Made by a program: the position numbers and the translations under genes. This document shows, piece after piece, positions 13,708 through 44,939 of a DNA stretch of 64,000 nt (the first letter of the stretch is position 1; the number at the start of each line of letters is the position of its first letter). Below the pieces are notes generated by a model that searched no databases, had not been told where the DNA came from, and saw nothing but the letters and a program-made list of their open reading frames with translations. Origin of the DNA: a virus; the IMG/VR virus record IMGVR_UViG_3300045988_127105, positions 1-64,000 of that record; one strand, written 5' to 3'.

Positions 13708-13726
13708 CCTTCGGTGTTACAACACC
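13708..13726 (+). repeat. Copy 1 of the GTGTTACAACAC motif (18-mer CCTTCGGTGTTACAACAC), intergenic
   Basis: 12-mer at 13714-13725. It lies between the stop at 13732 and the putative terS start at 13695. Confidence 0.9.
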
Positions 13727-13731
13727 TCACA

Positions 13732-14337
13732 TCAAAACGGATTCAAGTGTTTCCTAATCGTTCCCGGCAACACCCTACTGCTCAGTTCTTTTATCACCTT
13801 CTCTCCGTCCTCCAAGTTTTTCCCCCTGTCTATCGTTCTCTGGTCTCTCGATGTTAACGTGTTGGAGAGATATTCAAACAACGCCCCATCTACCAAATAC
13901 TTATGAATGGCTTGCACCAACGCATCATACACCGTCGCATCCCAATAATCCGGCATCACCAGTATTATCTCTTTCTCCTGCCATTCTTTCAGTTCGTTCA
14001 TTCTCGCTACTCCTTCTGGTTTAGCCACATAAGCCGACAGTATTCTTTCCACCGACGCTATATATTGGTCAAACCATCTGTAGAACATTGGTCTGTGCGT
14101 GTCCGCTTCCGATGTTGTCACCTCAGTCTCTTCCTGTGTCTTCCTCGTAGCCTTGTCTATCAATGATGTCACAGAGTCCACATCAAACAACAGTTGGTCT
14201 GCCTGTATGTAGATATGCTTTATGCTATGCCCGTATGCTCTCCTTGGTGGTTGTGGCTCAAGGGGGTTTGCTACTGGTATCCACCCTCTCTGTCTTGAAG
14301 CTACAAACGGATGCAATTCCGAAAAATCCTTTTTCAT
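13732..14337 (-). CDS. Hypothetical head / connector-module protein
   Basis: 201-aa ORF between portal and terminase genes. Confidence 0.5.
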   Translation of the reverse strand: MKKDFSELHPFVASRQRGWIPVANPLEPQPPRRAYGHSIKHIYIQADQLLFDVDSVTSLIDKATRKTQEETEVTTSEADTHRPMFYRWFDQYIASVERILSAYVAKPEGVARMNELKEWQEKEIILVMPDYWDATVYDALVQAIHKYLVDGALFEYLSNTLTSRDQRTIDRGKNLEDGEKVIKELSSRVLPGTIRKHLNPF

Positions 14338-14350
14338 GTCCTTTTTGTTT

Positions 14351-15139
14351 TTAGTAGTACTCCCTCGACACTATCACCGTAAACTCCACATACACATTGT
14401 CTGTATGTCGTGAGAATAGTCTTATCCTCGCTACTCCCGTGTTACGTGGCACAAGCTCAAATGTCATTGGTGCTCTGTAGCGCAGTATCTCCACTATGCT
14501 TGGGTCTTCCGAGCGTGCTTCAATGTCGTCTACTGCTCCTTCGTCAATACTGTACGACACCGTGGCATTCTCGTCCACGCGTATTATTATCTCGCCCTCC
14601 GCGTCTGTTCCGTCTACCTTTGCCGTTAGTGTTGTGGGATATTTTATTGTTGGTACTGCTGGAGCCGACAATACAAAGCAGCGTCTTATCGCAATCTCGT
14701 CCGCTGCTACTGCCGACTGATACGGTGCTGCCTGGTTTAGGTTGCCCAGTTTTACCCACCATTCGTAGCACATTGTGTCCTCTACAAACTTAGATACAAG
14801 TCTTGCCAACGTGTCTGTCAACGATCCGTTGTATCTTCGCGACACGTTTAGCGTAAACTCCACTATGTCGTTTGTCTTGTCGTTGTAGTATATGGCATTG
14901 TCGCCTATCGTCTGGGCTGTGGGCACATAGTAGTCTACAAAGATTATCTTTGCTTTTTCGAGTGCTGTTGTCAGGTCATGGTCCAATGTGCGCTCATGCA
15001 CCTCTTCGTCTCCTGCTATCTCGAAGTATGGCGTTTTCTGCCCTGGCTGTGCTGCCTCGTCTATCTTGCCTTTAAGATAGGTCGCTGCCTTTACAGCCTC
15101 GATTATCACGGATTTTATTATCTGAAATTTTATTATCAT
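14351..15139 (-). CDS. Hypothetical structural protein with Ig-like C-terminal region
   Basis: 262 aa. The C-terminus is beta-rich (TLTAKVDGTDAEGEIIIRVDENATVSYSI ... VYVEFTVIV). Confidence 0.5.
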   Translation of the reverse strand: MIIKFQIIKSVIIEAVKAATYLKGKIDEAAQPGQKTPYFEIAGDEEVHERTLDHDLTTALEKAKIIFVDYYVPTAQTIGDNAIYYNDKTNDIVEFTLNVSRRYNGSLTDTLARLVSKFVEDTMCYEWWVKLGNLNQAAPYQSAVAADEIAIRRCFVLSAPAVPTIKYPTTLTAKVDGTDAEGEIIIRVDENATVSYSIDEGAVDDIEARSEDPSIVEILRYRAPMTFELVPRNTGVARIRLFSRHTDNVYVEFTVIVSREYY

Positions 15140-15164
15140 GGTGACTTACTGTTTTTGTTTATAC

Positions 15165-15662
15165 CTATAGTTCAACCGAGCCCACACAGTCCGCGAGCGT
15201 CTTGTCCGCACTGCCTGGCGGTGTCTTCGTAAATATCAGTCGTGTGGCTGCAAGTAGCTGTGCCTGCACGTCCGTAGCATATTTTCCAGCAAGGTCTGGC
15301 AGTACCATCGCCAATACCGATTGCGTTACATAAGCAATGAGTAGCGACTTTACACTGTCTTGTGCTGCTCCTGATAGTGCATCGTTGCTTCGTGTAGTGT
15401 TCACAACGAACGCTATATATTCTGCTTTCTGTCCTCCTGCCTTCTTCCCAACTTCATACCCCGACAACACTGGCGATAGATTTGATGTCACAAGCTGCGC
15501 TCCGTCTATTATGCATTGTCGCATTACCGTGTCTTCCACACTTGATAGTGTTGACACCGAGAACAGCGTGTCGCCCTTCTGTGTGCTATGGTGTTTTCCT
15601 ATGATGGACAGTTGCCGTTTTACGGCTTCTTTCACATCTTCAATATATATGGCTATATCCAT
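15165..15662 (-). CDS. Hypothetical head-module protein
   Basis: 165-aa ORF directly downstream of the portal gene. Confidence 0.5.
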   Translation of the reverse strand: MDIAIYIEDVKEAVKRQLSIIGKHHSTQKGDTLFSVSTLSSVEDTVMRQCIIDGAQLVTSNLSPVLSGYEVGKKAGGQKAEYIAFVVNTTRSNDALSGAAQDSVKSLLIAYVTQSVLAMVLPDLAGKYATDVQAQLLAATRLIFTKTPPGSADKTLADCVGSVEL

Positions 15663-15678
15663 ATTTTACATTTTTATA

Positions 15679-17670
15679 TTATTGCATCAAGTATCCTTGC
15701 GCTTGTTCTACTGCCTGTTGGTTTGCCTCGGGCACTACTCCGTTCTGTGGCGCTTGCTGCCCCATTGCCTCTTGCTGCGCCCTTAGCTCTTCCATATTAC
15801 TCTGCACGTCCTGCAGCAGCTTGTCTGCAAACGGCTCATTCAGGTTCTGTAGATACTGTATGATGTTGATGGCTCCCTTGTCAAACAACATGTCAAGCTT
15901 GTCGTTTACGTTGTTCTGATAGGTGGCTGTAGCAGCAGCGTTCTTGATAGAAATCTTGAACATTATGTCTCTTGCGCCCAGTCTGTCATACTCTATCGGG
16001 TATGTGCTATCGCTATTGAAGATGGGTCGGCCGTCCTCATAGTATTGTTTTATCGTCATGCACTTCTTCTGTGCAATATTTTCAGTAAACGATTCCATGT
16101 CTTTCAGTATCGAGTAGAGCGAGGTTGAGGCATTCTGCGACTCTTGCGCATATCTCGAGGCCGATGTTCCAGCCGTTGGCGTCTTGCCTTGCAATGCGCC
16201 CGACACATTCGACACTTCGCGCATCAGGTTCAGCTCCATCTGCAACAGCTCGTTTGTTCCAAGATTCACGGCGTTCGACGTGATAATGTCTGGCCTTGAG
16301 TTTGGCAGCGTTGCCTTTGGCGTGTAGAATATCATTCCGTCATACTCCGTCGCTTGCTCGGCAAACTCGTCTGGTGTCATTCCGTCCAATACCTGTGTAG
16401 GGATAAGCCATACACCCTTGGCCGACGAGCGTATTGCCATGTCGTTCATTATTATCAAACGGTTTATGTATCTCTGCTGGTCTATCACGTTTGCCATGAA
16501 CGGATGTATTTCTCCGTTGATGTACGGATAGAGCTTTATCGTGAATGGATGCGACTTAAAGTCGTATGGCGTCTCTCCGCTGCATAGCACGGTTCCGTCT
16601 GGTGCCATAAACGTGTAGTACCAATACTTGTCTGCCACTTTCTTTGCCGTGATATAGGCTCTGTCTTCTGGCGGTACTCCCATCAGGTCATACTGCTCCT
16701 TTCTCTTCACGTTCTTCGCGTTTAGCTCCGCTATCAACACTTTGTCGTCACATTCTATGCGGAAGTAGGCATCACTTTCGTTTTTCGCTATCGGGTCGTA
16801 GCATTGGTATCTGTATTTCGTTTCCGTCGTCCACGCTTCTATTACTCTCACATATCGTCCGCGCTTCGACGGTATATCAAATGATATGTTCGACAGGTCG
16901 TTTGTGTCGTTGTGCATAGTTCCTTCCGTCTGACTGTCGTCTGGGTCTATGTCGAATATCCTGTTCAGGTCGTCTATACTAAGTCCATACTCGTCTTTCG
17001 CAAATTTCTTGTACAGGTCGTTTATAGATTCGTCATGCAGCACGCCTATCAGCGACAGGTCAAGGTGTCTTGGGTCCGAACCTCCCTCCCAAAACACATA
17101 GTTTGGCTCTATGTAGTCTGTCCACGAGTCTTCTATCTCCTGTGTTCTGTCTTCGTATGTCTCTCTACACACCATTACTCCTCCTACAAGGTAGTCTTCA
17201 AGCGCGTGTTTCAACAATATCTCCATCTGTGTGTTTTGCCAGTTGCATTGCATAGTTGCCGACATCATATCCGACAGGCTTTGCGACGATCGTGTTCTTG
17301 CAAAGCACACTGGCTCTGTACCTTGCTTTGCGTACATTCCCACAAGTGTGTTCAATATCGACACCATCACATTGTTCGACAACGGCACAGAGCCTTTCCT
17401 TTTCAGGTATTCTCTTTCCGTCATGTCATAGTAGTATCCGTTCTTGTACACTCTCACTGTGTCGCCCCATTGGTCGCCGTAGCAGTATCTCTTGGCTCTG
17501 TCTCTAACCATACGCACAGCCTCCAGGTTGTTCCATGCCTGCCAACATCGCTGCAGCAGCTCATAGTCCGTCTTCTTGCCCGACTGCCTTTCCTTACGTC
17601 TCCGTACGGTGTCAAACGTCTTGCCCGAAGTCGGCATTACACGTGATAAGGTGGGTATATTTTTCTGCAT
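15679..17670 (-). CDS. Portal protein (putative)
   Basis: 663 aa, first gene of the packaging operon. N-terminal RAKRYCYGDQWGD resembles the conserved portal N-terminal motif. The size is typical. Confidence 0.6.
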   Translation of the reverse strand: MQKNIPTLSRVMPTSGKTFDTVRRRKERQSGKKTDYELLQRCWQAWNNLEAVRMVRDRAKRYCYGDQWGDTVRVYKNGYYYDMTEREYLKRKGSVPLSNNVMVSILNTLVGMYAKQGTEPVCFARTRSSQSLSDMMSATMQCNWQNTQMEILLKHALEDYLVGGVMVCRETYEDRTQEIEDSWTDYIEPNYVFWEGGSDPRHLDLSLIGVLHDESINDLYKKFAKDEYGLSIDDLNRIFDIDPDDSQTEGTMHNDTNDLSNISFDIPSKRGRYVRVIEAWTTETKYRYQCYDPIAKNESDAYFRIECDDKVLIAELNAKNVKRKEQYDLMGVPPEDRAYITAKKVADKYWYYTFMAPDGTVLCSGETPYDFKSHPFTIKLYPYINGEIHPFMANVIDQQRYINRLIIMNDMAIRSSAKGVWLIPTQVLDGMTPDEFAEQATEYDGMIFYTPKATLPNSRPDIITSNAVNLGTNELLQMELNLMREVSNVSGALQGKTPTAGTSASRYAQESQNASTSLYSILKDMESFTENIAQKKCMTIKQYYEDGRPIFNSDSTYPIEYDRLGARDIMFKISIKNAAATATYQNNVNDKLDMLFDKGAINIIQYLQNLNEPFADKLLQDVQSNMEELRAQQEAMGQQAPQNGVVPEANQQAVEQAQGYLMQ

Positions 17671-17700
17671 ATTTCTATCTTATGTCATTGTCTATCAGCG

Positions 17701-17708
17701 CAAAAATA
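17701..17708 (-). promoter_or_regulatory. Candidate -7 promoter box for the portal operon
   Basis: Plus-strand CAAAAATA is TATTTTTG on the minus strand, about 31 nt upstream of the portal ATG. Confidence 0.35.
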
Positions 17709-17730
17709 CTCTAAATGACAGCATGAAATG

Positions 17731-17771
17731 CCGTGTTTCGTCTGTTCAAAAGTTGCAAGTACGAAACACGG
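17731..17771. repeat. 11-bp perfect inverted repeat in the divergent portal / scaffold intergenic region
   Basis: CCGTGTTTCGT (17731-17741) and ACGAAACACGG (17761-17771), 19-nt spacer. Confidence 0.7.
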
Positions 17772-17872
17772 AAAAACGGACGCAAAAAATCGGGATATTC
17801 GCAAGCGTAAACTAAAATATGTAGATACCCGGAAAAGGTAAAGGATAATACACCTTATTATATATAAAAAAT

Positions 17873-18634
17873 ATGGCAGAAGAAAATAATGAAATCAAGA
17901 CCGAAGCTCAGTCGCAAGCAGCGGCTACAGCTCCACCCGTGGACGACCGACCCAACCGCAAGGCTTTCTCCGAGCGTTTCGCCAAACGCCACAAGGACAT
18001 CGACTTTGAGGATAAGGAGGCTCGCTACGCTGCTATGAACGACGATGCCGACGCTCTCTCTCGCTACGAGGAGGACGGAAAGGCTCTCAGCGAAATGTTC
18101 GACAACAACCGTTGGGTTGCAGCTATGGCTATGGACCTTACAAAGAATCCCAACCTTAACCCTATCACATGGATAGCTTCTCATGGCATCGACATCGGCG
18201 CTGCTATGCAGGACGAGAAGATAGGCAAGGAGGTGGCTCAGCAGATTGCTGACTTCCAACAGAAGAAGGCTGACGAGGAAAACCACGAGAAGGAACTCGT
18301 CTCCAATCTACAGAAGTCGGCCGATGCTATGGACGAACTTGGTCTTGACGACGACGCTAAAGCCGACCTTTGGGAGAGTTTCTTCAAGGTTATCGGCGAC
18401 GCCGAGGATGGTATAGTCTCCACCGAGACGTGGCAGCTCTTCAAAAACGCGCAAAACTACGACGCTGATGTGGCTTCGGCTCGCGAGGAGGGTGCTATGC
18501 AAGGCCGTAACGAAAAGATTCAGAACAGGGTCAAGCGTTCCGAAAAGACCGAAATTCCGCCTTCTCTCAGTACTAACGGTGGCGTGTCGCCCACCAAAAA
18601 GAAGTCCAGTGGCTTCTGGGATGGTCTGGTTTAA
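17873..18634 (+). CDS. Scaffolding-like protein (putative)
   Basis: 253 aa, acidic, predicted helical, immediately upstream of the capsid-like gene. Confidence 0.45.
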   Translation: MAEENNEIKTEAQSQAAATAPPVDDRPNRKAFSERFAKRHKDIDFEDKEARYAAMNDDADALSRYEEDGKALSEMFDNNRWVAAMAMDLTKNPNLNPITWIASHGIDIGAAMQDEKIGKEVAQQIADFQQKKADEENHEKELVSNLQKSADAMDELGLDDDAKADLWESFFKVIGDAEDGIVSTETWQLFKNAQNYDADVASAREEGAMQGRNEKIQNRVKRSEKTEIPPSLSTNGGVSPTKKKSSGFWDGLV

Positions 18635-18681
18635 AATTAAAACACATTTTATTATTTATTAATTTCTAAAATATCAATTAA

Positions 18682-20367: not shown

Positions 20368-20401
20368 AGTTTTTTATTTCCGTAATAAATTAGTTGTCCC
20401 G

Positions 20402-20454
20402 ATAAGTCCTCGCTGAGCAACGGCTTTGCTCGCTAATGTCTCAGCGAGGCTTAT
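20402..20454 (+). terminator. Long stem-loop after the capsid-like gene (terminator / attenuator)
   Basis: ATAAGTCCTCGCTGAG pairs with CTCAGCGAGGCTTAT (one bulge). Confidence 0.5.
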
Positions 20455-20473
20455 CTTTAAAATCAAAAACTCA

Positions 20474-20893
20474 ATGATTAAGATATATAGATTAAAACAG
20501 GCTCTCAACAATGGTCATCATGTTCTTGTTGGCGCAGGTGGCAACAAGGTTCACTACGAGTTCACAGGTGGCAACGTCATTGCTGGCACTTGTCCTGAAC
20601 TTTCTCTTAAAGGCAAGTACTTTCAAGACCTTCTTGAGAGCAGTAAGCTCTTCAAGTCCGGTACAGTGGTGTTGGTCCGCGAAATCGAAACCTCAGACGA
20701 CATCGACCCCGTCCCAGCTCCCGAGCCAACGCCCAAGAAGCAGGTGGATAGTGTCGATTCCGTCACAACCCCCGACGAGCTTCTTGTTTACGTCAACACT
20801 AACTACTCCAAGAATTTCACCAGTCCTGCCAAGGCTCTCGCTTTTGCAGCTAAGGAAGGCATCGTCTTCCCCAAACTATCCCTTGGCGAGTAG
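20474..20893 (+). CDS. Hypothetical structural-module protein
   Basis: ORF 20426-20893; the ATG at 20474 (MIKIYRLK) lies downstream of the hairpin. Confidence 0.5.
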   Translation: MIKIYRLKQALNNGHHVLVGAGGNKVHYEFTGGNVIAGTCPELSLKGKYFQDLLESSKLFKSGTVVLVREIETSDDIDPVPAPEPTPKKQVDSVDSVTTPDELLVYVNTNYSKNFTSPAKALAFAAKEGIVFPKLSLGE

Positions 20894-37600: not shown

Positions 37601-40600
37601 GTTCGCCCGTCTTCTTGTCTACCTTCTGTTCTTTGGTCTTCGAGTCAATATCGGGAATAGCCAAGTCTGGGTTCTCGTCTGCACGTATCCACACGCCAAG
37701 CTCGTTAGCCTCCACACGCTTGCCGTTCACGGCTGCTGCCATTGGAGGATAGAGCTTACCGTCTATCACCTGCATCGCACGATACACCTTTACGGTCTCG
37801 CCATTCTCAAGCTCCTCAAGTGTAGCCTCGTCAGTCTCCTTGTGGTACTTCAAGTCCGAATCGGTCTCCTCGCTCTCACGGATCACCTCCTCAGCTTCCT
37901 TCTCGTCCGTCACCACCTCAATACCAGTCTTCTTGGTTATCTCCGTAGCGATCCGCTTGATAGCCTTGTCTACTTCTCGCTGACCTTTTCTTGCTTGAAC
38001 GTCTCTATCAGGGCTTCCTCCATTGTCATTCCCGGGTTTGCCTTCCTTATCTCCCTCCAATGGGCCACCGTTTTCTTCGGTAGATACATCATCGATATTC
38101 TTCCGCTCGAGTGTCTTATCTCCACTCTTTGCAAGTCCTTCTTTTCTTCTTCTGTCATTTTCTCGTTCTTTTAATGATTTTTCTGATATGTTTAATAGAG
38201 TAGGATTATCTGTAATTTCAGACATTGCATCCTTGCCGTGTTCTTGTGCGTATGTTACAAGATGTGCTAAAGCTTCGTCGGCAAGCATATAAAGCGCATC
38301 TGTATCATCCATTTCCGAAGCTCGTTCTGTATACTCTTTCATATTTGACAGAACTTCAACAACTCGTTCAAGTTCCTCTCGTGTAAGAGTATTCATATCT
38401 GTTATCGAATATACAAGAGCCTCGACCCTTGAAGGGTCTACTTCATTGTCCGCATGAACCGACTCATGCTCAAATGTCTCACGCAATTCTTCAGAGCCAG
38501 TACTGCCTTCAAGGTATATATGAATCTTACCATCTTCGTAATATCCTGGATAATGAGCACCCTCTGGCATATTTTCGATAATGGTCTTATCATTTTCTGT
38601 TTTCGCCGCATCCGCCAAGTCCTGCTTCGTCCTCAACACAACAGGCTCGTCATACCCATTACTCTTGGCAAACTCTTTCACATACTCTCCCATTTGGTCG
38701 AGTATACGCTCACGTTCTTCACCCTTGGCTTCCTTAAGCTGCTCTACGGCTTTGTTGTAGTCTGCTTCGCTTGTGATGACGTTTCCTCCTGGTGCTTGCG
38801 GTTCAGTTCCCTCAGAGCTGCCAGCATCGCCATTTCCTTCTTTGCTTGAATGTCTTGTTTCATAGTTCTTCCAGTTTCTAAGTTTCAAAAATTCCTTTAT
38901 AAACTCTTCATTCGTAGGTCTCTCGCCGAACATTTCCGTCTGGTTGGCGTCAGCATAAGGAGCGGCATTTCTGTTATACGCCATCATCAGCTCACGGAAG
39001 TCCTCAACCTTACCCTCCAGAGCAAGAGCAATAGCCTGAGATATAGGGTCAAATCTGTCCGCAGCGTTCTCGCCAAACATAGCAGGAGTGCGCAAGTATG
39101 CATCCACACCGCTTCCGCCTTGACGAGCTTCGTACAGCAACTGCACTGCCTGGTCTATCTCCTTCATCAGAGCATAGTCGCCAAGTTTCATATTGTCCGT
39201 CACGGCACGGATGCCGTTCAGAGCCTTGGTTTTCAGCATAGCGTCAGCGCCCATCATGCGGATAGTGTTCTCCGAGAACACACTGCCCAATAGCAGGTTC
39301 TTCACGAAGTCCTTGCCTGCTGCCGAAAGCTTGTCCTCGCCCTCACGCAATCCCGCTATCTCGTTCAGACCAATCACGCCCTTATCAATTAAACGCTTTA
39401 GCAACGAGTTTATTGCAGTAGGATTGTTAAAGAATGCGTCAAGACTGCCACTGCCCTCTATCTCGGCTATAATGGCACCTACCTCGTCAGTACTTAACAC
39501 CTTGGCATTCTTTACCGACTGCTCTGTATTGCCAATACTCTTGGTCTCTTGCCTGTTGAAAAGGTCAAATGTCTTACTTGTAAGCGGCATCTTTTTGTCG
39601 GGTACAAAATATACTGTACCCTTAAAGCCTGCCTCTTCTATTTGCTTTGGAGTCCAGCCGAAGCCTTCTGCGTTTTCACTTAGGCTCTCATAATACTTGC
39701 CGTCAGTACCATAGCGTTCCGCAAGTTGTTTACCCATTGTCGTGCCATTTCCGCTTAACAGAATACCATCCTGCACAACTGGCACATTCTTTAGTGCTTG
39801 TCCGCCAAAGTCTCTGCCAATTTTCTCTGTAAACAGACGCGACTCCTTGTCTTTGTAAGAACGTGAGTTTGAGGAAGACCCGTCTTCATTAACTGGGAAC
39901 CCCTCGTTCTGCTTAAAGTCATTAAACGGATCGTGCGAAGGTGTAAGTCCTGAAACCTCGCCATAAAAGTATTGACCTGTTATCTTAGTTCCGTCAGGAA
40001 GAGTGATAGAACCACGTCGTCCGGGAATCTTCTTTGATTTCTCGAACTTCTCTCGCACAGCAACACTCACTTCACCTACCGAACCTACACTACCTTCTTC
40101 ACCTACACTACCTACCTTCTCCATTCCAGCCTTAACCTTATTCGCGGTCATTACCTTCTTGATATTGGTATATAGCTCCAGCTCTGCTTTGGCGGCATCA
40201 ACCGCCTTCGTCTTCTGAGCCTCAGCTTCCTTGGCGTCGTTCAAATCTCCCGTGTAGTCCACCTTTATTTTTTCGGCTTCCTTCAGCATCTTCTCGGCTC
40301 TCTTTATCTGTCCGTCTACAGCAGTTTCTGCGTTCTCGCCAAACTGCGAAGACATCCACTCCGCTCCCTGTTCAGGTGTCATTTGCGAATAGTCAGCAGT
40401 CTCACGGCCTTTCGTGTCCTTCATCATCGGCACAGGTGACCCATCGGCAAATGTTAAAGTTTCGTTACTTCCATTGCCATTATCGGATGGATTCTTTTTT
40501 TCTCCTTCCCCTATAGGCTTTACATCTTCAACTCCAGGCGCCGACGCGCCCTCCTTCGGTGTTACAACACTCTCAGTCTTAGTATCGGATTTTTCACTTT

Positions 40601-43600
40601 TCTCTTTTACCTTTTCACTCTCAGCGTAAGCCACCGAGTTCATAACCTCCAACATCTCCTGATAGTTCTTGGCATAGTCCTCCGTCTTTTCCACATGGTC
40701 AAGCTGCACGTCCTTCTTGCTTACGAAGTCCATTTCCTTTGTATTCGGGTCAAGCACGCTAAGCATGTCGCCAACGTTTTCTCTCGCTCTACCTTCACTA
40801 TCAAACGCAACATCGCCAGCTCCAACAATCAGCAGTCTGCCATTGTTGTCCTTCACAAACAACATCTGGCCGCCCTCTTGCTTCTCGCCGTTCAGCTCGC
40901 CCTTGTAGCTCCATTGCTCCACATGTTTCTGCACGGTCTCAGCAATCTTCTGTTCAGTTCCGCGATACATGCCCACAGCCTTAGCCTTGGCGTTGATATA
41001 GTCGGCAAAAGGTGCAAGCTGTTCCTGCGTCAGTCCCGAGTTTATCAGCTCCATGTATATCTGAGGTTCCGAAAGACCCTCCTTTGTCAGTCTCTCATAC
41101 TCCTGCTTCAACACATCGTTGCTTTCCAAGGCTGCATTAAACGCCTTCTCTGCATTCTTCATGTTGTTCAGCACCTCATCCACAGCCTCGTTGTTAGGAT
41201 TCTCCGTGCCAAGGTTATTCTCCTCAACCACGTCCTTGCCCTCTGTCTGCGACTGGTCGGGATGCAACGTTCCTTCCGGGAACTGTTCTCCCTCATAAGC
41301 CTTTCTCAGAGCCACACAAGCGTTCTGTTCCTCCTCGCTACGCTTCAACGGGTCTTTGTCCATAGCTGCCTTCAACTGTTCAGCAGTAAAGCCAAACGTC
41401 TCAGCTACAGTCTCCAATGTTTCTTGTGCCGTTTTTTCGTCCTTTATCTGAGCTGCACCATAGGCATTACTCAAACGTTGGTTTTCGCGTCTCAGTCTGA
41501 GTGAGTAAACTACAGAGTCTCGTTCGTCTTCAGTTTTGACGATATGTTCTGACAATAGCTCTCCATATTTACTATACTCGCTTATAGTGCCTCCTCCATA
41601 ACCAATATACTCCATCATAGGACGTGACGAAGGAACCGTTCCCATAACCAAAGCAGAGAACTTAGCCTTTGTGTCCCAAGGTATTGTATTGTCTGCCATT
41701 ATCTCATCATAGGCAGTCTTCACAAATTCAGCGTCCGTATCCTTATACGACTCCTCGCCCTTTCCTCTGGCTGTTGTCTTCTTGGTTCGCAATGCCCAAT
41801 GAGTAAATCCTTCCGGTCTTAACGGCATGTCTTCTATAAGCCTTTCGTACATTTTTCGTAACGGTGCCTTGTTACTTCCGAACAACTGTTCTTTCTCCTC
41901 ATTGGTGAATGTATATCCACCAAATGATGCTCGCTGACCGTCAGACACCATAAGGTTGGCAAGGTTTCTCTTCACCATGTCAAGATAGCTTTCCTTTTTG
42001 CCATCCTTCGTATAACGATTAGGCAGTCTTGCGTGTGTCAGCTTCAAGGCTACAACGTTGGCACAAGCCTCAAGTGTGCCTTCAACGCTCCAGAAGTCGG
42101 TATCATGTCCCTCTATCATCTTGGCGACATTACCACCGACGTGCATACCCCAACCTTCCATCGCTATTTGAAACACCTTGGCTGGAATACGCTTCACGCC
42201 ACTCACATTATAGATTCCTGCACCTACAGCACCACCAATGCCACCCATAGTAGCCCAGCTTGCGCCCTCAGAAAGACCGCCCATAGTCATAAGCTTCACG
42301 GTATTGCCTATCGAAGTGTCGTCGCCAGTAGAGTAGTTCTGCACGGCTGCATTCGTCGAACCGTACAGCACACCCGTCACGCCTTGACTCACAGCACCCG
42401 CTGTAGCCATTCTGACGATACGACCGCGCAATGACGTGTTCGCTATTCTTGCAGCCTGGGCTACTCCGTTACCCATAACCTTGCCTGCCACGGCTGCACC
42501 AGCCTTTCCTAATGCACCAAACACAGGAGCGTCTGCAGCAAAGCTCAATGTTCCGCGTGCCACTCTCGCACCCATACCCGGTTTAACATAAGGATTTTCC
42601 CCGTTGTCGGTCATAGCCATTCCTTGCTGAGCATACTGTCTCTGCTTCTTCGACATCATACCCATCGACAAGATAGTGCCTATCATCGAGTCGTTGACAC
42701 CACGGATGATATATTCTGCCGTACTCTTAGGCATATTACGGCTCAATTCGCTCTTCTCAAACTCCTCAGCTATCTTTGCTTGCAAGCCAGGAGCTATATA
42801 ATTCTTTACATAATCCTCTGGGTCGATACCTAACGAAGCTGCCTTTTCTGCTATTTCCTTCTGCATCTTCGGGTCGGAGAACAACCCAGCCATGTCTTTC
42901 TCGGCATTCTTGCTGAGCTGATTCATTAGCTTGTCAGGATCAAGGGCTTCATTGTAAGCCTTACCTGCTGCCATATATGCAAATGGAGAGGCCTTGCTCA
43001 AAGCATCTTCTGCTGCAACACCTTTAACTGTCGCATCCTTAAACATCTTTTGGATACTATTGTTTATATATCCGCCAAGCTGTTTGTCAACAAGCTGTCT
43101 GCTGCTTTCTTCCAACTCATCCTCCAACTGTCCGCGTGTCTTAACAATATTGTTGTTCACGTCCTCGTTCCCAAGGTCAAAGGCAGGAGCATTACGTCTG
43201 TCTCGCTCACGGTTTGTAAATTGTCTTCCTGCCTGCTCCACATTCTGCCCCACGATATGCTGTCTCTCCCTTGTCTGCTTCACCATCTGTTTCACAGCAC
43301 CCGGCTTTGTGTAGCTCACGGGAGCCTGTAATCTCTGTACGGCATTCGCATTCTTCAATCCGCGCACAAGCTCGCTATCATTCTCCATCGGCGCTGAAGC
43401 GCTCTCATATGCCGTAGTGTTTCCATGTGTTACAACACCACCGCCCCACTTCTCTTTCGCCACGCTCTGTTGTGCTCTGCCTAATGCGGTCTTTGGTTGC
43501 TGCTGAGGCTTTGTCGCTCTTGGCTTCTGCAACTTGCGCATAAACTCCTCATACGAACCACCCAAGTCAGCACCATTCTTTGTGAACAGGTCGTACACAG

Positions 43601-43724
43601 CCTTTCTGTTGGCATAATTGCTGTTACCAGTAAACTTCTTTTCGAATGTATTATAGTCCTGGCTATAGCCGTTGTCAGCCATAAGCTTGTACATCCTCTG
43701 CAACTTACTTCTATCTATTGCCAT
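25683..43724 (-). CDS. Giant polyvalent protein (6,013 aa): zincin x3, N6-adenine-type MTase, SNF2-like helicase, ParB-like (tentative), membrane-active termini
   Basis: Uninterrupted 18,042-nt ORF. Motifs read from the translation: EPSAGNG and VVTNPPFG; IIGDMTGIGKGR, LILDESH, QMRGRIDRTGQ; HESVH, HEYAH, HETVGH; Gly/Ala-rich hydrophobic N-terminal stretch; C-terminal hydrophobic helix. Confidence 0.9.
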   Translation of the reverse strand: MAIDRSKLQRMYKLMADNGYSQDYNTFEKKFTGNSNYANRKAVYDLFTKNGADLGGSYEEFMRKLQKPRATKPQQQPKTALGRAQQSVAKEKWGGGVVTHGNTTAYESASAPMENDSELVRGLKNANAVQRLQAPVSYTKPGAVKQMVKQTRERQHIVGQNVEQAGRQFTNRERDRRNAPAFDLGNEDVNNNIVKTRGQLEDELEESSRQLVDKQLGGYINNSIQKMFKDATVKGVAAEDALSKASPFAYMAAGKAYNEALDPDKLMNQLSKNAEKDMAGLFSDPKMQKEIAEKAASLGIDPEDYVKNYIAPGLQAKIAEEFEKSELSRNMPKSTAEYIIRGVNDSMIGTILSMGMMSKKQRQYAQQGMAMTDNGENPYVKPGMGARVARGTLSFAADAPVFGALGKAGAAVAGKVMGNGVAQAARIANTSLRGRIVRMATAGAVSQGVTGVLYGSTNAAVQNYSTGDDTSIGNTVKLMTMGGLSEGASWATMGGIGGAVGAGIYNVSGVKRIPAKVFQIAMEGWGMHVGGNVAKMIEGHDTDFWSVEGTLEACANVVALKLTHARLPNRYTKDGKKESYLDMVKRNLANLMVSDGQRASFGGYTFTNEEKEQLFGSNKAPLRKMYERLIEDMPLRPEGFTHWALRTKKTTARGKGEESYKDTDAEFVKTAYDEIMADNTIPWDTKAKFSALVMGTVPSSRPMMEYIGYGGGTISEYSKYGELLSEHIVKTEDERDSVVYSLRLRRENQRLSNAYGAAQIKDEKTAQETLETVAETFGFTAEQLKAAMDKDPLKRSEEEQNACVALRKAYEGEQFPEGTLHPDQSQTEGKDVVEENNLGTENPNNEAVDEVLNNMKNAEKAFNAALESNDVLKQEYERLTKEGLSEPQIYMELINSGLTQEQLAPFADYINAKAKAVGMYRGTEQKIAETVQKHVEQWSYKGELNGEKQEGGQMLFVKDNNGRLLIVGAGDVAFDSEGRARENVGDMLSVLDPNTKEMDFVSKKDVQLDHVEKTEDYAKNYQEMLEVMNSVAYAESEKVKEKSEKSDTKTESVVTPKEGASAPGVEDVKPIGEGEKKNPSDNGNGSNETLTFADGSPVPMMKDTKGRETADYSQMTPEQGAEWMSSQFGENAETAVDGQIKRAEKMLKEAEKIKVDYTGDLNDAKEAEAQKTKAVDAAKAELELYTNIKKVMTANKVKAGMEKVGSVGEEGSVGSVGEVSVAVREKFEKSKKIPGRRGSITLPDGTKITGQYFYGEVSGLTPSHDPFNDFKQNEGFPVNEDGSSSNSRSYKDKESRLFTEKIGRDFGGQALKNVPVVQDGILLSGNGTTMGKQLAERYGTDGKYYESLSENAEGFGWTPKQIEEAGFKGTVYFVPDKKMPLTSKTFDLFNRQETKSIGNTEQSVKNAKVLSTDEVGAIIAEIEGSGSLDAFFNNPTAINSLLKRLIDKGVIGLNEIAGLREGEDKLSAAGKDFVKNLLLGSVFSENTIRMMGADAMLKTKALNGIRAVTDNMKLGDYALMKEIDQAVQLLYEARQGGSGVDAYLRTPAMFGENAADRFDPISQAIALALEGKVEDFRELMMAYNRNAAPYADANQTEMFGERPTNEEFIKEFLKLRNWKNYETRHSSKEGNGDAGSSEGTEPQAPGGNVITSEADYNKAVEQLKEAKGEERERILDQMGEYVKEFAKSNGYDEPVVLRTKQDLADAAKTENDKTIIENMPEGAHYPGYYEDGKIHIYLEGSTGSEELRETFEHESVHADNEVDPSRVEALVYSITDMNTLTREELERVVEVLSNMKEYTERASEMDDTDALYMLADEALAHLVTYAQEHGKDAMSEITDNPTLLNISEKSLKERENDRRRKEGLAKSGDKTLERKNIDDVSTEENGGPLEGDKEGKPGNDNGGSPDRDVQARKGQREVDKAIKRIATEITKKTGIEVVTDEKEAEEVIRESEETDSDLKYHKETDEATLEELENGETVKVYRAMQVIDGKLYPPMAAAVNGKRVEANELGVWIRADENPDLAIPDIDSKTKEQKVDKKTGELKWKFKLDKGGKDATGKKATDIPAAYNPYWHTSRSPLNDQFKSAWIRPNIVVVECEVPVSELSSGYKAERAKDAVGEVDWKSGVVSGEVYKQTGRARKVILSRWCKPVRVLSDAEVAQRAKEFVGDAKVEIPENVLTPRQRIEFEKAGFKIGAPEKGVKKSDQINEALKRGLQIDNSVKEFRTAKGEVYGFTDGEKIYLDTKKMKPETPLHEYAHLWCDMLRKVNPKEWENVKKLFDKVEGLKEEVQKLYPELEGDALYEEMITTYSGREGTKKLEDVVRKLAAEEGKSVTESAKAQGFLEKVKVALTKYWKGVADVLGIHFTTAEEVADKVLADWAKGVDPRGSEKGKVKSEESDSKVEGVVTPKGDIKDATAPKGEEPLAILPKKEEKAFDPIGKAAENYKKDHPLTEGEIRSSDVDDIAKDMAVDYLNGEVTDDLHRAVYESIYEKVKDAKMKNATKQADNKTETTETPKVEASASPIEGLKNAAEKFAKEKEAAAEAMGEVKKPQQKADDAAVEASNKKVNDLWNDLLKAGREDLSASFIGLNARQLEVLPKLVSAMAENAYLRIKRGMHNLEDVVKEMRKEFAPAAQVFKKEDVDAIYEQMMNIRYRDGEQRMSLKEWADYYEKSSPKHKEELVGDSKEAEDRKLREKRFVDKVNIQLGFGHKFNGIVELRKMAEKCGLKDVKDTDLQELAETAIVHRARGIASSESTNNTEKFKRIKKLYENQPSLNQRDSERVMKQQYSTPAPYAFLADMYVKAGIEVKSALEPSAGNGMLTIGLPKDAVHVNDIDAQRLANLQRQGFKNITSQDGTQPFADKDVDVVVTNPPFGSATTKEYDGYKISSLEGQMAINALESMKDNGRAAIIIGGKTEYAKNGSLNPKDKALLGFLYSHYNVEDVINVDGSLYAKQGTTYPTRIILINGRRFDENAYPPVKDKARAEAVKSYDELYKRINDDILRSGRMDSPVGEGGEDANAKPNRPSVADVNEEGVRAGGNGGGEQKPSVRTGGVHDKTAEPVSDNVLGTEGGTKPGENGGLPDGATGANGAGAEPTPSKEPTTGTNKQRGNEPGGNGRPNTQPNADETTDAGNGGRPRGQLERVDRPVRGLSAEKVAYTPRSENPFTLKAVMPADQQDAVNKNLEKLGDADQFLVDELGYNDKADLYAHLAAEQVDSVALALQQAKKGNAFIIGDMTGIGKGRQAASLIRYAKKQGQVPVYFTKTAGLLSDVYRDLVDIGSKELRPFVFGSAKEAAITDADGNVVFALPSKSEVKRVLDYIEKNGELPKEYDYVLTTYSQVSNGVYEFDENGNRKERKLAKGKKFGAAAISGQARRDAIEKLMKNGYLILDESHTAGGDSGQGNYFQHIIQKAKNVTFFSATFAKRPDNMPIYALRTAMNQGGLKASDLIDAVKRGGATLQEIMSQALTQCGQMIRRERDMTGVTIDWKAIDDPEVVAEQREQYDSIIGLFNDIINFQRTYVSAYVDRRNEELAEVQSSMGIKRGTEALGIKNQPFASKAFNTVQQVLLSLKAKSAAERAIDYLKQGMKPVIALNNTNESQTGNLALGEEMDAPDLGTSLKKGLEGTLRYTSKNAKDESESGYINLSDLGADAVEAYHALEEKIRKTSTGLSLSPIDVIKNELTKAGYKVGELTGRQTEFAYNENGTVTKVKRADTDKKKLAREFNDGQIDALILNKSAATGISLHASSKYADQRKRVMIVAQQQLDVNDEVQMRGRIDRTGQVARGAYEYVVSLIPAEQRLLMMFKAKLKSLDANTTSSQKSKFNEMEVADITNKYGDKVVKEYMAEHLDLYARMADPFGWEKSYGADLSAVDPQKLVSSSDGMSSEAGGDASKLLGRMALLKVKEQEKMLQEIGDLYAAEIQRLNEMGENDLEITELPLKAKTINKGVWKEGSEPGGDNAFADNTYVEKVNMAVLKKPMKAEEVKKAQDGLTGGKSWDEYKKEKKKAIEDYFINKAKEEGAKIEERARKAAAKAREKHLKDALRNQKNSGMTDEQIAQMAIYQQDNIYKVENEKGEEVVKNLKAKAEMFYRILETFNTEDAFVLPTDMNNPAELSGFGNSYGRLIDIKITDNFSPNASTVSFATLDGRRKITFPINGKAGLGSDKADVIGIIDRLTRQASAMGDNHLRVLSMDTSNWDKLTSNESRKDGYIITGNLLQALIDTKEQGLGGQLVKYTTDTGDVKTGILMPGNFEPNGLANEKPINSVAEKFELPSNKGGITEVTSSDGDVKIEQGFDYMKMARNYTIRVPKSNKKGGKYFLDKELLKMVDGGNFETRGNTMLAEVKEEKLKDVLDRLSELGVKVKEESKVHYRMELGDTFSDSKEHFDAVRDRAVEEKGIVMPNLNKEKVKVVEVEKSPFGNNIETSLKNAREWARENLVTMGKTEMPTMRDGTPYIISKRAVEKYLSESAVRKSENLDIHLSVLPKLTDVIHESIEAEIHADYNVKDETGKRKAELGYGNNILVHRLYGAVEMDGKIYRVKTTMQEFRGGEENKPHSYEVTKIELPDTPGTAVLPDSSPLDMTPSNSKNITSEGSEKANESDSLPLNSTTNGYISTAKLLQGVEKSYDSGKKLLDESKNLTDGETFFRKEGDGVVTPEKTSGTSNAVSERIIKTVEKVAKRTGGKVKMVNSVEEIENPKVRKDIENGKQVTGWYDEKTGEVHLYMPNIHDSYTAEKTVWHETVGHKGMRGLLGDKFNDYMRGLWMDLDNPINAELRAYVKEKMNMNHLGFYDAIEEFIAKSAEDGKGEPGFWNYIKNKVTDALHEIGYRVSPNVKAVKYMLWLAKNVQKHGDSPLWKMRAEAVRWKIEHEKTEYTKIEGGELYDNDGKSHDFEGMSREEWLEATDGEIHYRTAPSAATALDRYHHALDRHSYMATEAFMDNMLSLKKLMEAIDPSIRKIEDVNSSMNPYLMQNITEGMMSDKSKLFEIRYMDPLSKAMSSVLDSFDGKKVEDRIRNFNLYMIRKHGLERNRVLFVRDWIRSEKGKVKSEESDSVDALETAWKDERSDLRKKLDSGQIDLKEYYRQMDEWIVQNLDKDFKAEEHDYSGMHGLQGIDDMKSPYDDAGAIDEVVSQEASMESMKKGSVADFWKKVKAATDYSVNSDYENNIITKETHDGVLNMFDWYVPLRKFDEATAEDVYGYVTEMGDPSNYIGTTLMNAKGRKSLSNVEILAQIGLMGNRAIRNGGQNSIKLAFARFVRNSGEQNLVKETKVWVEKTGTDLNGNDIWEEAYPQIPEGASADDVASIVDAFETDMRTKQAKGEAKSLSNGTDIGFKFQRAKDKSQHFVDVKIAGRTHRFVVLGNPRAAQALNGMLENGKASVRSLQAVTRWMAMASTSWSPEFVMRNIVRDMEFASSHVAAKEGGRYLAKWSRYYGELNPLNMFYNEGAGSLKSMKMKDFKNGVGFGLYARYREGTLGNSKMERYFKEFMENGGETGFVQLFSMHDMEKSYKSIVEKESAKGAKKVMVNAVEVLKKLGENVENLNEVAENMARFATYCTSRDLGRSAARSAYDAKEVSTNFNRHGSGDAIKSFKNGEMGDWQKARRNTYGFVAGYLRNYSMFFNAGIQSTNLLFKNIKRAPVGTTVAMTSAPFALALIMAAVNNAIIQNEDDKDRGNVKDPYGELPDYIRRNNLCIYVGNNKFVTVPLAIELRAFYSLGDLAAGQTFAKNVKSQRNMAMDAVGCMSQLFPVMDFLNNPNYEKSLENGVGMTTEGIAPTAIVPFIEWWLNNDWKGAPIRRTGDKTELNPAWQNAYNNVPARLVDLNKWVNAKTNNIAPGNPEMKGNEVLDWATDPSMLNHFFGSWSGGMGTFTQRTAGLVAKATTGKTDEIEVGDVPFLRSLFYTPREQSSMARTKAKWYNYKEEMEQTIANNDKLNSKNVPTMKRIENAAALEKFEGSPEQRKVNIIKNAEKRMRHWNTMRKKWADDKKQVDFANKNIEMIMQEAVEDLDRIE
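26725..26820 (-). other. Hydrophobic helix in the C-terminal region of the giant protein
   Basis: APVGTTVAMTSAPFALALIMAAVNNAII. Confidence 0.5.
28563..28601 (-). repeat. Intragenic linker repeat, copy A (encodes SEKGKVKSEESDS)
   Basis: 39 nt, 38/39 identical to 36531-36569. Confidence 0.9.
29487..29504 (-). other. HExxGH zincin-type motif (third metallopeptidase-like module)
   Basis: VHLYMPNIHDSYTAEKTVWHETVGHKGMRGLLG. The first His is aa 4741. Confidence 0.55.
29753..29764 (+). repeat. Copy 3 of GTGTTACAACAC (giant ORF aa 4654-4657, GVVT)
   Basis: Exact 12-mer in the context GGTGTTACAACACC. Confidence 0.9.
32350..34100 (-). other. SF2 / SNF2-like helicase module of the giant protein
   Basis: Motif I GDMTGIGKGR (about 34001-34040), motif II LILDESH (DESH at 33546-33557), motif VI QMRGRIDRTGQ (32380-32412). 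Confidence 0.75.
34820..35375 (-). other. N6-adenine-type DNA methyltransferase module of the giant protein
   Basis: SAM-binding LEPSAGNG (about 35275-35295) and catalytic DVVVTNPPFG (NPPF at 35109-35120). Confidence 0.8.
36503..36569 (-). repeat. Intragenic linker repeat, copy B, including copy 4 of GTGTTACAACAC (aa 2402-2405)
   Basis: CCTTCGGTGTTACAACACC (36503-36521) plus the 39-nt block 36531-36569. Encodes SEKGKVKSEESDSKVEGVVTPKG. Confidence 0.9.
36957..36971 (-). other. HExxH zincin-type motif (second module)
   Basis: EKIYLDTKKMKPETPLHEYAHLW. The first His is aa 2252. Confidence 0.55.
38454..38468 (-). other. HExxH zincin-type motif (first module)
   Basis: KIHIYLEGSTGSEELRETFEHESVHAD. 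The first His is aa 1753. Confidence 0.55.
39721..39960 (-). other. ParB / DdrB-like stretch (tentative)
   Basis: GLTPSHDPFN ... VPVVQDGILLSGNGTTMGKQLA resembles the ParB-superfamily core strand-helix, from memory only. Confidence 0.3.
40553..40619 (-). repeat. Intragenic linker repeat, copy C, including copy 5 of GTGTTACAACAC (aa 1052-1055)
   Basis: 59/67 nt identical to 36503-36569 by hand alignment. Encodes SEKVKEKSEKSDTKTESVVTPKEG. Confidence 0.85.
42190..42600 (-). other. Gly/Ala-rich hydrophobic region near the N-terminus of the giant protein
   Basis: GMGARVARGTLSFAADAPVFGALGKAGAAVAGKVMG ... GGIGGAVGAGIY. Confidence 0.5.
43427..43438 (+). repeat. Copy 6 of GTGTTACAACAC (giant ORF aa 96-99, GVVT)
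   Basis: Exact 12-mer. Confidence 0.9.
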
Positions 43725-43736
43725 ATATTTTTCAAA

Positions 43737-44939
43737 TTAAAGTTTAAAACCCGATGCCCAACCTCTTTTCTTCGGCTTGGCGTTATTCTTTCGTGAGGCT
43801 CTTGCCTTGTTCTGCTGCTGAGCCGCCTGACTCGTCATAGAAGGGCCTTTCTTTCGTTGTGTCGTTGTAACCTCCTCGCCTTTAGAATTGTAGGCCTTCG
43901 TGCTAACCGAAGTACTTGACTCACCATGCGGCAACGCTCCATACTCACGATAATATTCTTGCTCCCACATCGTCTGGTTTGGTTGATAACGCATTTTGCC
44001 GCTTTTGTCCACAAACCAATACTTGCCGCCCGATGTCTTGCCTCCTCTGCCAGAACCGCTCTTTGCTGCTCGTTTTGCAGATATGGCAATGCGTCTGTCT
44101 GTCTGACCGTTCTTAATTTTGTCCTGCTCCTTCTTATACGCAAACTTATCATCGGCAAGCTTGGCGTTATGTTCATCCTTTCCTTTCTGATGCCCAAATC
44201 TGTCCTCAGCCAATTTTTGTGCCTTTTCACGTATGCCAAGAGCAAGGTTTTTATAAGCTCTGTCTGCATCTGCTGCATCCATCTTTATCTGCAAGTTGGC
44301 ATTCTTATACGCAGCGTCAGCCTCAGCAGCAGCCTTTCTCGCACGTTCTGCCTTTCTCTTGTCAAGGTCTGCTTGCATCTCGGCAGTCGGACTATTAAAC
44401 TTCTGTAGCGCAGCGCCCTTGGAGGTATTATAGATATTCCCCATGTGTCGTATTGCATCAGCTAAAGTGGCTATGCGCATATTGTTTCTCGTCATGCGCT
44501 CGTCATAATCATCATCACTCTCGCCTTCACGCCTTCCTGGTCGCTTCTTCGACAATCCGCCAAGCCACTTAAAGAAACCACCATCCCTTTGACTATCGTC
44601 CTTCTCAAACACAGCAGTAACACCCTTATCACCACCAACAGCACCCAAATCAACACCACCCAAAGGCTTAGAGTTAAGAGCGTAAGAGGATGGCATACTT
44701 CCCTCTAACTCCCTCGGATTTGACGTCTGCCACGGTTGTTGAGCATTGCTGCCCTCATTCACTGGCTTACCGTAAGGTGACCATCCTACATTTACAGGCA
44801 TATTCTCAAACGTAGTAGGTCGTTTACCGCTAAACACATTAGCCGGTTGCTGAGGCTGTGCCAAAACACCAGGAGCCACAACACCAGGCTGTGTTACAAC
44901 ACCCTCCCTCTTCTCCTTATCGTCCAATACTGTGTTCAT
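43737..44939 (-). CDS. Hypothetical basic / coiled-coil protein (candidate internal virion protein)
   Basis: 400-aa ORF ending 12 nt upstream of the giant ORF start. The N-terminus carries EGVVTQPGVV. Confidence 0.6.
   Translation of the reverse strand: MNTVLDDKEKREGVVTQPGVVAPGVLAQPQQPANVFSGKRPTTFENMPVNVGWSPYGKPVNEGSNAQQPWQTSNPRELEGSMPSSYALNSKPLGGVDLGAVGGDKGVTAVFEKDDSQRDGGFFKWLGGLSKKRPGRREGESDDDYDERMTRNNMRIATLADAIRHMGNIYNTSKGAALQKFNSPTAEMQADLDKRKAERARKAAAEADAAYKNANLQIKMDAADADRAYKNLALGIREKAQKLAEDRFGHQKGKDEHNAKLADDKFAYKKEQDKIKNGQTDRRIAISAKRAAKSGSGRGGKTSGGKYWFVDKSGKMRYQPNQTMWEQEYYREYGALPHGESSTSVSTKAYNSKGEEVTTTQRKKGPSMTSQAAQQQNKARASRKNNAKPKKRGWASGFKL
44891..44902 (+). repeat. Copy 7 of GTGTTACAACAC (aa 13-16 of the 400-aa protein, GVVT)
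   Basis: Exact 12-mer. Confidence 0.9.

Follow-up and report, generated by a model that had tools for sequence, protein, structure and literature searches.

A strand-locked, exactly repeated 12-mer in the spacers and disordered linkers of the virion-gene region of a temperate Prevotella phage

A 12-nucleotide word, GTGTTACAACAC, occurs seven times, always exactly and only on the plus strand, in a 64,000-nucleotide stretch of viral DNA (IMG/VR record IMGVR_UViG_3300045988_127105, positions 1 to 64,000, hereafter the window), which is most of a temperate, podovirus-like phage of ~75 kb. The repetition of this word is genuine and far from random. It marks a signal at the level of nucleic acid, with the constraint on the nucleotides and not on a peptide, and it is a feature without earlier description. 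Its copies lie in an intergenic spacer, in two smaller virion-region genes and, four times, in a giant open reading frame (ORF) that encodes a protein of 6013 amino acids (aa). By comparison with known phage motifs we tentatively read it as the recognition or nick site of a sequence-specific DNA enzyme, which may also act as a recombination hot spot. The copies are as follows.

13714 to 13725, plus strand: copy 1, intergenic, between the stop of a gene for a 201-aa protein (13732-14337, minus strand) and a terS-like gene.
21117 to 21128, plus strand: copy 2, inside the plus-strand SU10-type adaptor gene (20912-21580), in a Ser-rich linker, read as SVTT.
29753 to 29764, plus strand: copy 3, read as GVVT at aa 4654-4657 of the giant ORF, in the linker that follows LPD3.
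36509 to 36520, plus strand: copy 4, read as GVVT at aa 2402-2405 of the giant ORF, in the linker that precedes the methyltransferase-helicase module.
40559 to 40570, plus strand: copy 5, read as SVVT at aa 1052-1055 of the giant ORF, in the linker that precedes the ParB-like module.
43427 to 43438, plus strand: copy 6, giant ORF aa 96-99, GVVT, inside a 10-aa insertion.
44891 to 44902, plus strand: copy 7, aa 13-16 of a 400-aa protein, GVVT, in the gene just upstream of the giant ORF.

The genes that carry or adjoin these copies are listed below.

25683 to 43724, minus strand: the giant ORF, a gene for a 6013-aa polyvalent protein whose inter-domain linkers host copies 3 to 6.
43737 to 44939, minus strand: the gene of the 400-aa protein, in the same operon as a T7 gp14-like gene; hosts copy 7.
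13324 to 13695, minus strand: the terS-like gene (123 aa), directly downstream of copy 1; the terS label comes from position only.
11182 to 13320, minus strand: a TerL-like gene whose product matches a PHROG terminase family at its C-terminus.

An earlier reading of this DNA, made from the letters alone (the sequence-only reading), had reported seven co-oriented exact copies, and all seven were recovered where it had placed them. The reading frames it gave were correct, and so was the distance of exactly 18 nt between copy 1 and the ATG of the terS-like gene at 13695. The expected number of copies in the window was 0.01, and none of 100 dinucleotide-preserving shuffles of the window reached seven. 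A scan of the window that allowed up to two mismatches returned no copy of GTGTTACAACAC with a single mismatch and no GTGTTNNAACAC with another central dinucleotide. When the seven copies were aligned with 50 nt of flank on each side, only the 12 bases were invariant. The longer word CCTTCGGTGTTACAACAC, an 18-mer that had also been noticed before, was confirmed at 13708, 36503 and 40553; the patch shared among these three copies spans 18-24 nt, and the flanks of the other copies are unrelated. The 12-mer is a dyad with 5-bp arms and a 2-bp core, and it reads GTGTTGTAACAC on the minus strand, which is the sense strand of the giant gene. Its predicted fold had an energy of -0.9 kcal/mol, no better than that of shuffled sequences, and of -1.6 to -3.7 kcal/mol when the flanks were included. 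We therefore rejected a hairpin role, because the folding energy is marginal and it is the sequence that matters rather than a structure. A scan of IMG/VR with a 14-mer gave single, chance-level matches only, and the 18-mer was found solely in this phage clade, so that the element is not a widespread mobile element. One further site in the window resembles the 12-mer, doubtfully.

9868 to 9879, minus strand: doubtful motif relative, CTGTTACAACAG on the minus strand and CTGTTGTAACAG on the plus strand, inside the gene for an 888-aa protein.

At this site the 10-base core of the motif runs the other way and the outer bases are exchanged; it lies on the far side of the terminase genes. The match may be due to chance; the site is present at the orthologous place in other genomes that bear the 12-mer (type A).

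We asked whether the 12 bases are kept for the peptide that they encode. The sequence-only reading had considered that the element might be a protease or targeting site, with its nucleotide identity maintained by gene conversion. On the side of this explanation, five of the window copies are read as (G/S)VVT in disordered linkers, copies 4 and 5 lie in paralogous linkers of ~25 aa (SEKxKxKSExSDxKxE[GS]VVTPK; window 36440-36600 and 40480-40640), and polyvalent proteins are thought to be processed. The common VVT frame is largely forced and thus is not independent evidence, because of the two other minus-strand frames of the 12-mer one contains TAA and the other reads Cys-Cys-Asn. The codons argue against the peptide. 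With the codon usage of the window, the chance that VVT is written GTT-GTA-ACA is 0.022 for each occurrence, and five of the eight VVT tripeptides in the window are written in this way; the probability of such identical synonymous codons by chance is P ~3e-7.

The comparison with relatives led to the same result. IMG/VR relatives without the 12-mer have no (G/S)VVT at the homologous linker positions, and where GVVT occurs elsewhere by chance, in three of these genomes, other codons are used. At the aa 96 site, motif-bearing genomes carry a 10-aa insertion, GVVTHGNTTA, relative to some of the others, and the 12 bases of copy 6 are exact although the flanks are only ~86% identical. For copy 7, a synonymous GGT>GGA change in one relative (L252) breaks the 12-mer. 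Three loci are incompatible with a GVVT reading, and some genomes have no copy at all that is read as GVVT. Retention of GVVT with scrambled codons, together with loss of the intergenic copy, had been proposed beforehand as the sign of a purely protein-level motif; the relatives showed the opposite, which supports a signal at the level of DNA. We therefore rejected the protease or targeting peptide, since the peptide is lost along with the 12-mer, the codons are identical, three loci are not GVVT and only two copies share extended flanks, those of most copies being unrelated; a protein-level motif is effectively refuted. Remnants of a single recent segmental duplication, the other outcome that had been foreseen as damaging, were also excluded, as only the copies at 36509 and 40559 share the paralogous ~25-aa linker. 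Taken together, the codon statistics, the joint loss of peptide and 12-mer, and the existence of antisense and non-coding copies show that the constraint acts at the nucleotide level, as the sequence-only reading had supposed.

Next, we analyzed the distribution of the 12-mer among relatives. Fetched loci were merged by contig, which gave 19 related sequences, and these contain 75 copies in 11 flank contexts (~10 loci). None of the 19 sequences has copies in mixed orientation. Outside the 12 bases, only position -1 is fixed among the 75 copies, as a purine; beyond it there is no more than a weak tendency to GAGR...CGRAGG on a purine-rich background. All exact copies fall within the ~31-kb virion-gene part of the genome, in spacers or in low-complexity or disordered linkers; the last ~10 kb of the genome contained no exact copy, and neither did the early region, whether of the window or of its relatives. 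IMG/VR relatives have the 12-mer either in exact form or not at all. The position of copy 1 is kept in relatives with 92-100% portal identity, with a 1-nt variant in two genomes, whereas at 63% portal identity the spacer before the terS-like gene is missing, and so is any such element. Relatives with 92% portal identity carry the exact word at new loci. A lineage with 92-93% portal identity (L127, L142 and L179) has three copies, none of which is read as GVVT: the terS spacer contains one, and the two others lie antisense in genes of the opposite transcription unit, the adaptor gene and a gene for a 454-aa protein. Copy 2 of the window likewise runs antisense to the form that the giant gene carries, and its orthologue in L127 is antisense in a 220-aa adaptor gene. 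Copies thus occur in sense, in antisense and in non-coding DNA, and therefore their orientation follows the DNA strand and not transcription or translation. Among close relatives the copy number ranges from 0 to 7, so that the 12-mer is dispensable and turns over quickly. We found no analogous element in more distant relatives or in the few-copy lineage.

A second element was found in close relatives that lack the 12-mer but whose portal proteins are 85-97% identical (type B). Examples are L269, L220 and L125 (contig 085924), L216 and L126 (contig 068999), L234 and L137 (contig 097625), and L267 (Leyella stercorea). These genomes carry tandem CTRRGCC units spaced 9-10 bp apart, often as a cassette of ~50 nt, with 18-42 units per genome on one strand versus 0-1 on the other. 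The arrays occupy the spacer upstream of the terS-like gene, linkers of the giant ORF (read as ASLGLSKP), the homologue of the 400-aa protein gene and nearly all other late-region spacers; they were absent from 13 kb of the sister-phage early region. At several of these sites the frame is closed or the genes run in the opposite direction, and the arrays are antisense throughout the terminase unit of the sister lineage, where they stand on both sides of terS. A 26-mer of type B is confined to this clade, so that this element, too, is not a widespread mobile element. A segment of ~17.8 kb (window ~7800-25650), from a rhomboid-like gene to the last tail gene and including terminase, portal and capsid genes, is inverted between the lineages relative to the giant gene (contigs 068999, 085924, 097625 and 139547). 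Despite this inversion, each lineage keeps all of its elements on one strand. Two unrelated elements have thus independently colonised the same permissive late-region positions, and each is strand-locked. To us, this parallel is the strongest sign of a DNA transaction that has a direction along the genome.

A literature comparison showed that the 12-mer most resembles the unexplained one-strand motifs of other phages. In phages tf and Rembedalsseter, a 9-mer (5'-TACTRTGMC-3' in tf, WACTRTGAC in Rembedalsseter) occurs 13-14 times versus 0.7 expected, on one strand only, in genomes made of two convergent transcription units, and its copies are unevenly spread with 88% in coding DNA (PMC3517423, PMC11780129). 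This type of motif is kept in relatives with little nucleotide similarity, and sister phages carry variant words (PMC3517423, PMC11780129). One substitution is enough to abolish nicking, T5 mutants without nicks are viable, and no function is known for the nick motifs (PMC3517423, PMC11780129). Like the nick motifs of T5/BF23, of phiKMV-like phages and of tf/LUZ24-like phages, the 12-mer is a short, enriched, exact word confined to one strand despite opposed transcription units; its copies are uneven and mostly coding, it is kept across diverged relatives, and it is dispensable. Unlike them, it is 12 nt long with a 5+5 dyad and is known here from sequence alone, its phage is temperate with a Prevotella host, and its copies are confined to spacers and disordered linkers. 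It also differs in that its sister element consists of tandem degenerate units instead of a point variant, and in that module exchange has its junctions exactly at some copies. New traits are the placement in frame between modules of a giant polyvalent protein, the replacement of the 12-mer by an unrelated element in sister phages and the exactness of module junctions.

Because this anatomy matches that of the tf and Rembedalsseter motifs, we take a recognition or nick site of a sequence-specific DNA enzyme as the most likely reading, one that we hold tentatively. Under this reading, the phage would be selected to keep several exact, co-oriented copies across the virion-gene half of its genome, and copies would survive only where 12 fixed bases are tolerated, in intergenic spacers and in disordered protein linkers. 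This would explain why four copies lie between modules of the giant protein. The 12-mer would be a strand-specific cis site read by a sequence-specific enzyme that cuts one strand, and the one-strand break would become a double-strand end when a replication fork arrives. Nick sites would thereby be recombination hot spots, and module-exchange junctions would accumulate at them. We infer each of these steps, namely the reading of the 12-mer by a protein, the resulting nick and the recombination driven by it.

We then examined which phage protein might read the 12-mer. Several candidates vary in a way that does not follow the element. The TerS-like protein is 89% identical between the lineages, with scattered conservative changes only, despite the unrelated elements in the spacer next to its gene. 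The helix-turn-helix (HTH) repressor is only 35-79% identical among genomes that have the same exact 12-mer. Modules of the giant ORF other than the ParB-like one do not track the element type either, and the early module (PcfK/PcfJ and neighbours) is common to both lineages. The most bimodal protein between the lineages is a 165-aa protein (15165-15662), whose homologues are all uncharacterised Prevotella-phage proteins. The TerL-like and 888-aa proteins have no sequence relatives in the PDB.

These data bear on the possibility, raised by the sequence-only reading, that the 12-mer is a pac-related binding site. According to this explanation, which we consider unlikely, the copy next to terS would be pac or part of it, the others would be secondary sites of a packaging or DNA-organising protein, and their co-orientation would keep all packaging series running in the same direction along the concatemer. 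The conserved position beside the terS-like gene speaks for it: one copy is always in the spacer upstream of that gene, the sister element is found there too, and all other window copies lie on one side of this spacer. Such a copy upstream of a terS-like gene recalls the pac or small-terminase repeats of SPP1, P22 and P1. The pac boxes of SPP1 are phased repeats, and the sister element is phased like them, its 9-10 bp phasing being typical of cooperative binding arrays. But a TerS-like protein that is nearly the same in lineages with unrelated elements, and that does not co-vary with them, lends no support to a TerS binding site, although some other protein might read the copy there; the sister arrays stand on both sides of terS, and terS itself was assigned by position. 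Pac sites also differ from seven dispersed copies, and we know of no pac phage with seven dispersed pac sites.

Transcription offers another explanation in which direction matters. The 12-mer could be a one-direction transcription element, such as an ops- or nut-like antitermination site, a Rho-loading site or a stoperator-type roadblock. Six of the seven window copies lie on the sense strand of long operons, the 12-mer resembles the ops element in being 12 nt long with a small dyad, and the CTRRGCC arrays are C-rich islands in a C-poor strand. Such a role appears very improbable, since copies are antisense in adaptor and tail genes, arrays are antisense in the sister terminase unit, genomes with the same 12-mer have repressors that differ as described, the word folds only marginally (-0.9 kcal/mol), and no copy stands at an operon start. 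The stoperators of mycobacteriophage L5, reportedly described by Brown et al. in 1997 as 13-bp asymmetric repressor sites present at ~24-30 per genome, are similar in being multi-copy, asymmetric sites of 12-13 bp, often in short intergenic DNA of a temperate phage. Stoperators are oriented with transcription and read by the immunity repressor, whereas the orientation of the 12-mer ignores gene direction. For this reason, and because the repressor varies among 12-mer sharers, we rejected the reading as a stoperator or repressor site.

Uniform orientation is also typical of signals for polar translocases. Chi (RecBCD/AddAB) and KOPS/SRS (FtsK/SpoIIIE) are, like the 12-mer, orientation-dependent and over-represented, with a function tied to direction along the DNA and not to genes, and the 12-mer might accordingly tame a host exonuclease that enters from the unpackaged pac-cut end, or load or orient a translocase (e.g. 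an injected helicase module). The copies lie on one side of the terminase genes and start beside them, the strand of the 12-mer that is read is rich in G and T, and lineages with different tail genes, probably with different hosts, carry different elements, all of which would fit. We nevertheless regard this explanation as improbable. Known Chi and KOPS words are 5-8 nt long, whereas all 12 bases are fixed here, and Chi and KOPS are host-defined and genome-wide, whereas the exact 12-mer is restricted to ~31 kb of the phage. Host flank, of which 9.6 kb was covered, contained 0 copies of the 12-mer, a small sample and thus a weak test. Furthermore, the phage has a RecT recombination module of its own, and few-copy lineages with different tail genes share the same 12-mer.

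The relationship between the copies and module exchange was analyzed in the giant ORF. A domain scan located a ddrB-ParB-like domain at aa 1309-1363, a methyltransferase (MTS) at aa 2813-2917, a Sno/SNF2-type helicase at aa 3208-3936 (AAA_34/ResIII/Helicase_C_4), LPD3 at aa 4428-4552 and LPD38 after aa 4654. The methyltransferase, the helicase and LPD3 are all between the copies at aa 2402 and aa 4654, in agreement with the sequence-only reading, which had placed the first two of them there; the ddrB-ParB-like domain is between the copies at aa 1052 and aa 2402. P1 DarB and other large polyvalent proteins resemble the giant host gene in this content (methyltransferase, SNF2/Sno, LPD3, LPD38, ParB-like), a likeness that does not concern the motif; to our knowledge no nucleotide punctuation has been described in them. 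The giant ORF is extremely mosaic among relatives. Borders of homology blocks lie near aa 100, 1050-1200, 2400 and 4500-4650, that is, at or near the four copies, and the ends of megablast high-scoring segment pairs cluster at 36467-36531, around copy 4. Contig 079676 shows homology downstream of the aa 4654 copy and unrelated sequence upstream of it, and the change falls exactly on the motif. A second event is a 30-nt indel in the terS spacer, which lies flush against the 3' edge of copy 1. Contig 079676 also carries, between its aa 2402-type and aa 4654-type copies, a 5.7-kb cassette (L213, 14165-19864) that replaces the methyltransferase-helicase-LPD3 segment of the window and encodes a helicase (ResIII/DEAD/SNF2) followed by a methyltransferase, the reverse of the domain order in the window. 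By a rough estimate, the two exact-edge junctions compare with ~0.2 expected, given ~10 distinct events within 300 nt of copies. The earlier suggestion that the copies are recombination junctions thus gains real but limited support from block borders, two exact edges and one swapped cassette; many recurrent junctions lie elsewhere.

These results could mean that the 12-mer is passive recombination punctuation, a set of conserved boundary words at which RecT or microhomology swaps modules in frame with no cutting enzyme. We judge this fairly unlikely. The block borders, the exact junction and the swapped cassette are in its favour, as are the common frame of all giant-ORF copies, which would keep exchanges in frame, the genes for RecT, an AAA_23 ATPase and NinG in the phage, and the 18-24 nt patch of three copies, which suggests short-patch copy-paste. 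Short words at the borders of exchangeable modules are also known as the boundary or linker sequences of modular phage evolution and as T4-type PeSL cassettes; these are intergenic and come with promoters or terminators, whereas the 12-mer consists of 12 bases only and stands in frame in a 6013-aa ORF, or antisense. Twelve bases fall far short of what annealing proteins need, the spacer and antisense copies have no role in in-frame shuffling, recombination between two direct copies of the same genome would cost the phage essential genes, and many junctions are away from copies. Passive punctuation also leaves unexplained why the 12 bases are exact and why they keep a single orientation across opposed units. 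A crossover site for a site-specific recombinase, which would have inverted arms of ~7-13 bp around an asymmetric core and a dedicated recombinase, was rejected, since the arms are only 5 bp and no precise deletion between two copies, the product of a resolvase-type reaction, was seen in the flank comparisons. The sole recombinase recognised was the tyrosine integrase.

Several results weigh against a nick site as well. No candidate for a nuclease or nickase emerged from Pfam and PHROG scans of ~50 ORFs, the giant protein has a ParB-like module that varies independently of motif type, and a model of the 165-aa protein (pLDDT 76.6) had no PDB match at E <= 0.001. Some close relatives manage with 0-3 copies, indicating that the element is dispensable. 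Many junctions recur away from copies (e.g. 30006, 39488, 40092, 41486, 43203 and 44250), and linkers are natural junctions whatever they contain. Co-orientation reaches only ~P = 0.06, a conservative figure for two lineages, if copies spread within transcription units in an orientation-preserving way. Finally, the degenerate tandem CTRRGCC units, phased at 9-10 bp, look more like a cooperative protein-binding array than like nick sites. This character of type B keeps alive, beside the nick site, both the packaging or binding explanation and that of passive boundaries. A wider proposal is that the clade uses interchangeable families of short strand-locked words (the 12-mer and CTRRGCC) as punctuation that an enzyme cuts or marks. 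The words would be inserted at any place that tolerates them, also in frame between modules of the giant protein, taken here as an injected anti-defence protein, and this would enable co-infecting phages to exchange whole effector modules as in-frame cassettes; we consider it speculative and rather doubtful.

The phage itself was characterized from its gene content. Besides the genes mentioned above, the window encodes a P22-type portal, the SU10-type adaptor, the T7 gp14-like internal protein, PcfK/PcfJ, a tyrosine integrase (313-1452) and the HTH repressor (47575-47895). Integrated and circular forms were seen in positions 1-10000 of L299-L302, L304 and L305 and of L303 and L306-L308. When integrated, the phage adjoins a host (Bacteroidales) LptD_2 gene, downstream of QueF and SusC/SusD. 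In the circular form, the integrase is connected to an early region with RecT, a 682-aa AAA_23/SMC_N ATPase, NinG, an HTH gene and, in some genomes, a metallo-beta-lactamase-fold protein. Relatives were found in Leyella (Prevotella) stercorea and in uncultured Prevotella. A megablast comparison of the structural region with GenBank phages gave no match, and the nearest GenBank phages at the protein level were Bacteroides phages with a portal identity of only 34-38%. The window contains no Rfam family and no tRNA.

Other features of the genome were observed in passing. Just ahead of the gp14-like gene, whose start is at 46491, 3-4 tandem repeats of ~43 nt (AAAGGTACT...AAAGGAGGTC...TTCCCC) occupy 46464-46587 on the minus strand and end at the start codon; they may serve the late operon as an operator or activator array. 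The repressor gene is separated from this operon by a 1-kb ORF-free stretch (46573-47575) without an Rfam match, which includes a tract at ~46700-46900 whose minus strand is strongly depleted of C, and the sister lineage has a different conserved ORF-free stretch in the same place. Four putative tail genes (271, 190, 290 and 341 aa; 22060-25615) are found only in the many-copy 12-mer lineage; the genes at this place in the two other lineages are unrelated to them, suggesting that the lineages differ in host range. A gene for a rhomboid-domain protein (7816-8424) lies beside the virion genes, a Tad2-like (anti-Thoeris) protein is encoded at 59555-60118 on the minus strand, and there are two DUF7841 paralogues (5676-6155 and 54260-54724). 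Some relatives that are otherwise near-identical have additional NUMOD4/HNH_3 endonuclease genes, which the window lacks (14159-15088 in L299; 14159-15088 and 3077-3661 in L308), and these are probably homing endonucleases.

Should the 12-mers prove to be sites of nicking or cleavage, the range of one-strand nick motifs would reach past T5-like phages and Pseudomonas podophages to temperate phages of Prevotella, a dominant genus of the human gut. They would then offer a functional clue that the older systems lack, namely that the sites coincide with junctions at which anti-defence modules of a giant polyvalent protein are exchanged. The presence of unrelated elements at the same positions in sister lineages provides a natural handle on the reader protein. 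The motif is also a practical marker, which types lineages of these phages and flags the permissive linkers of the 6013-aa protein.

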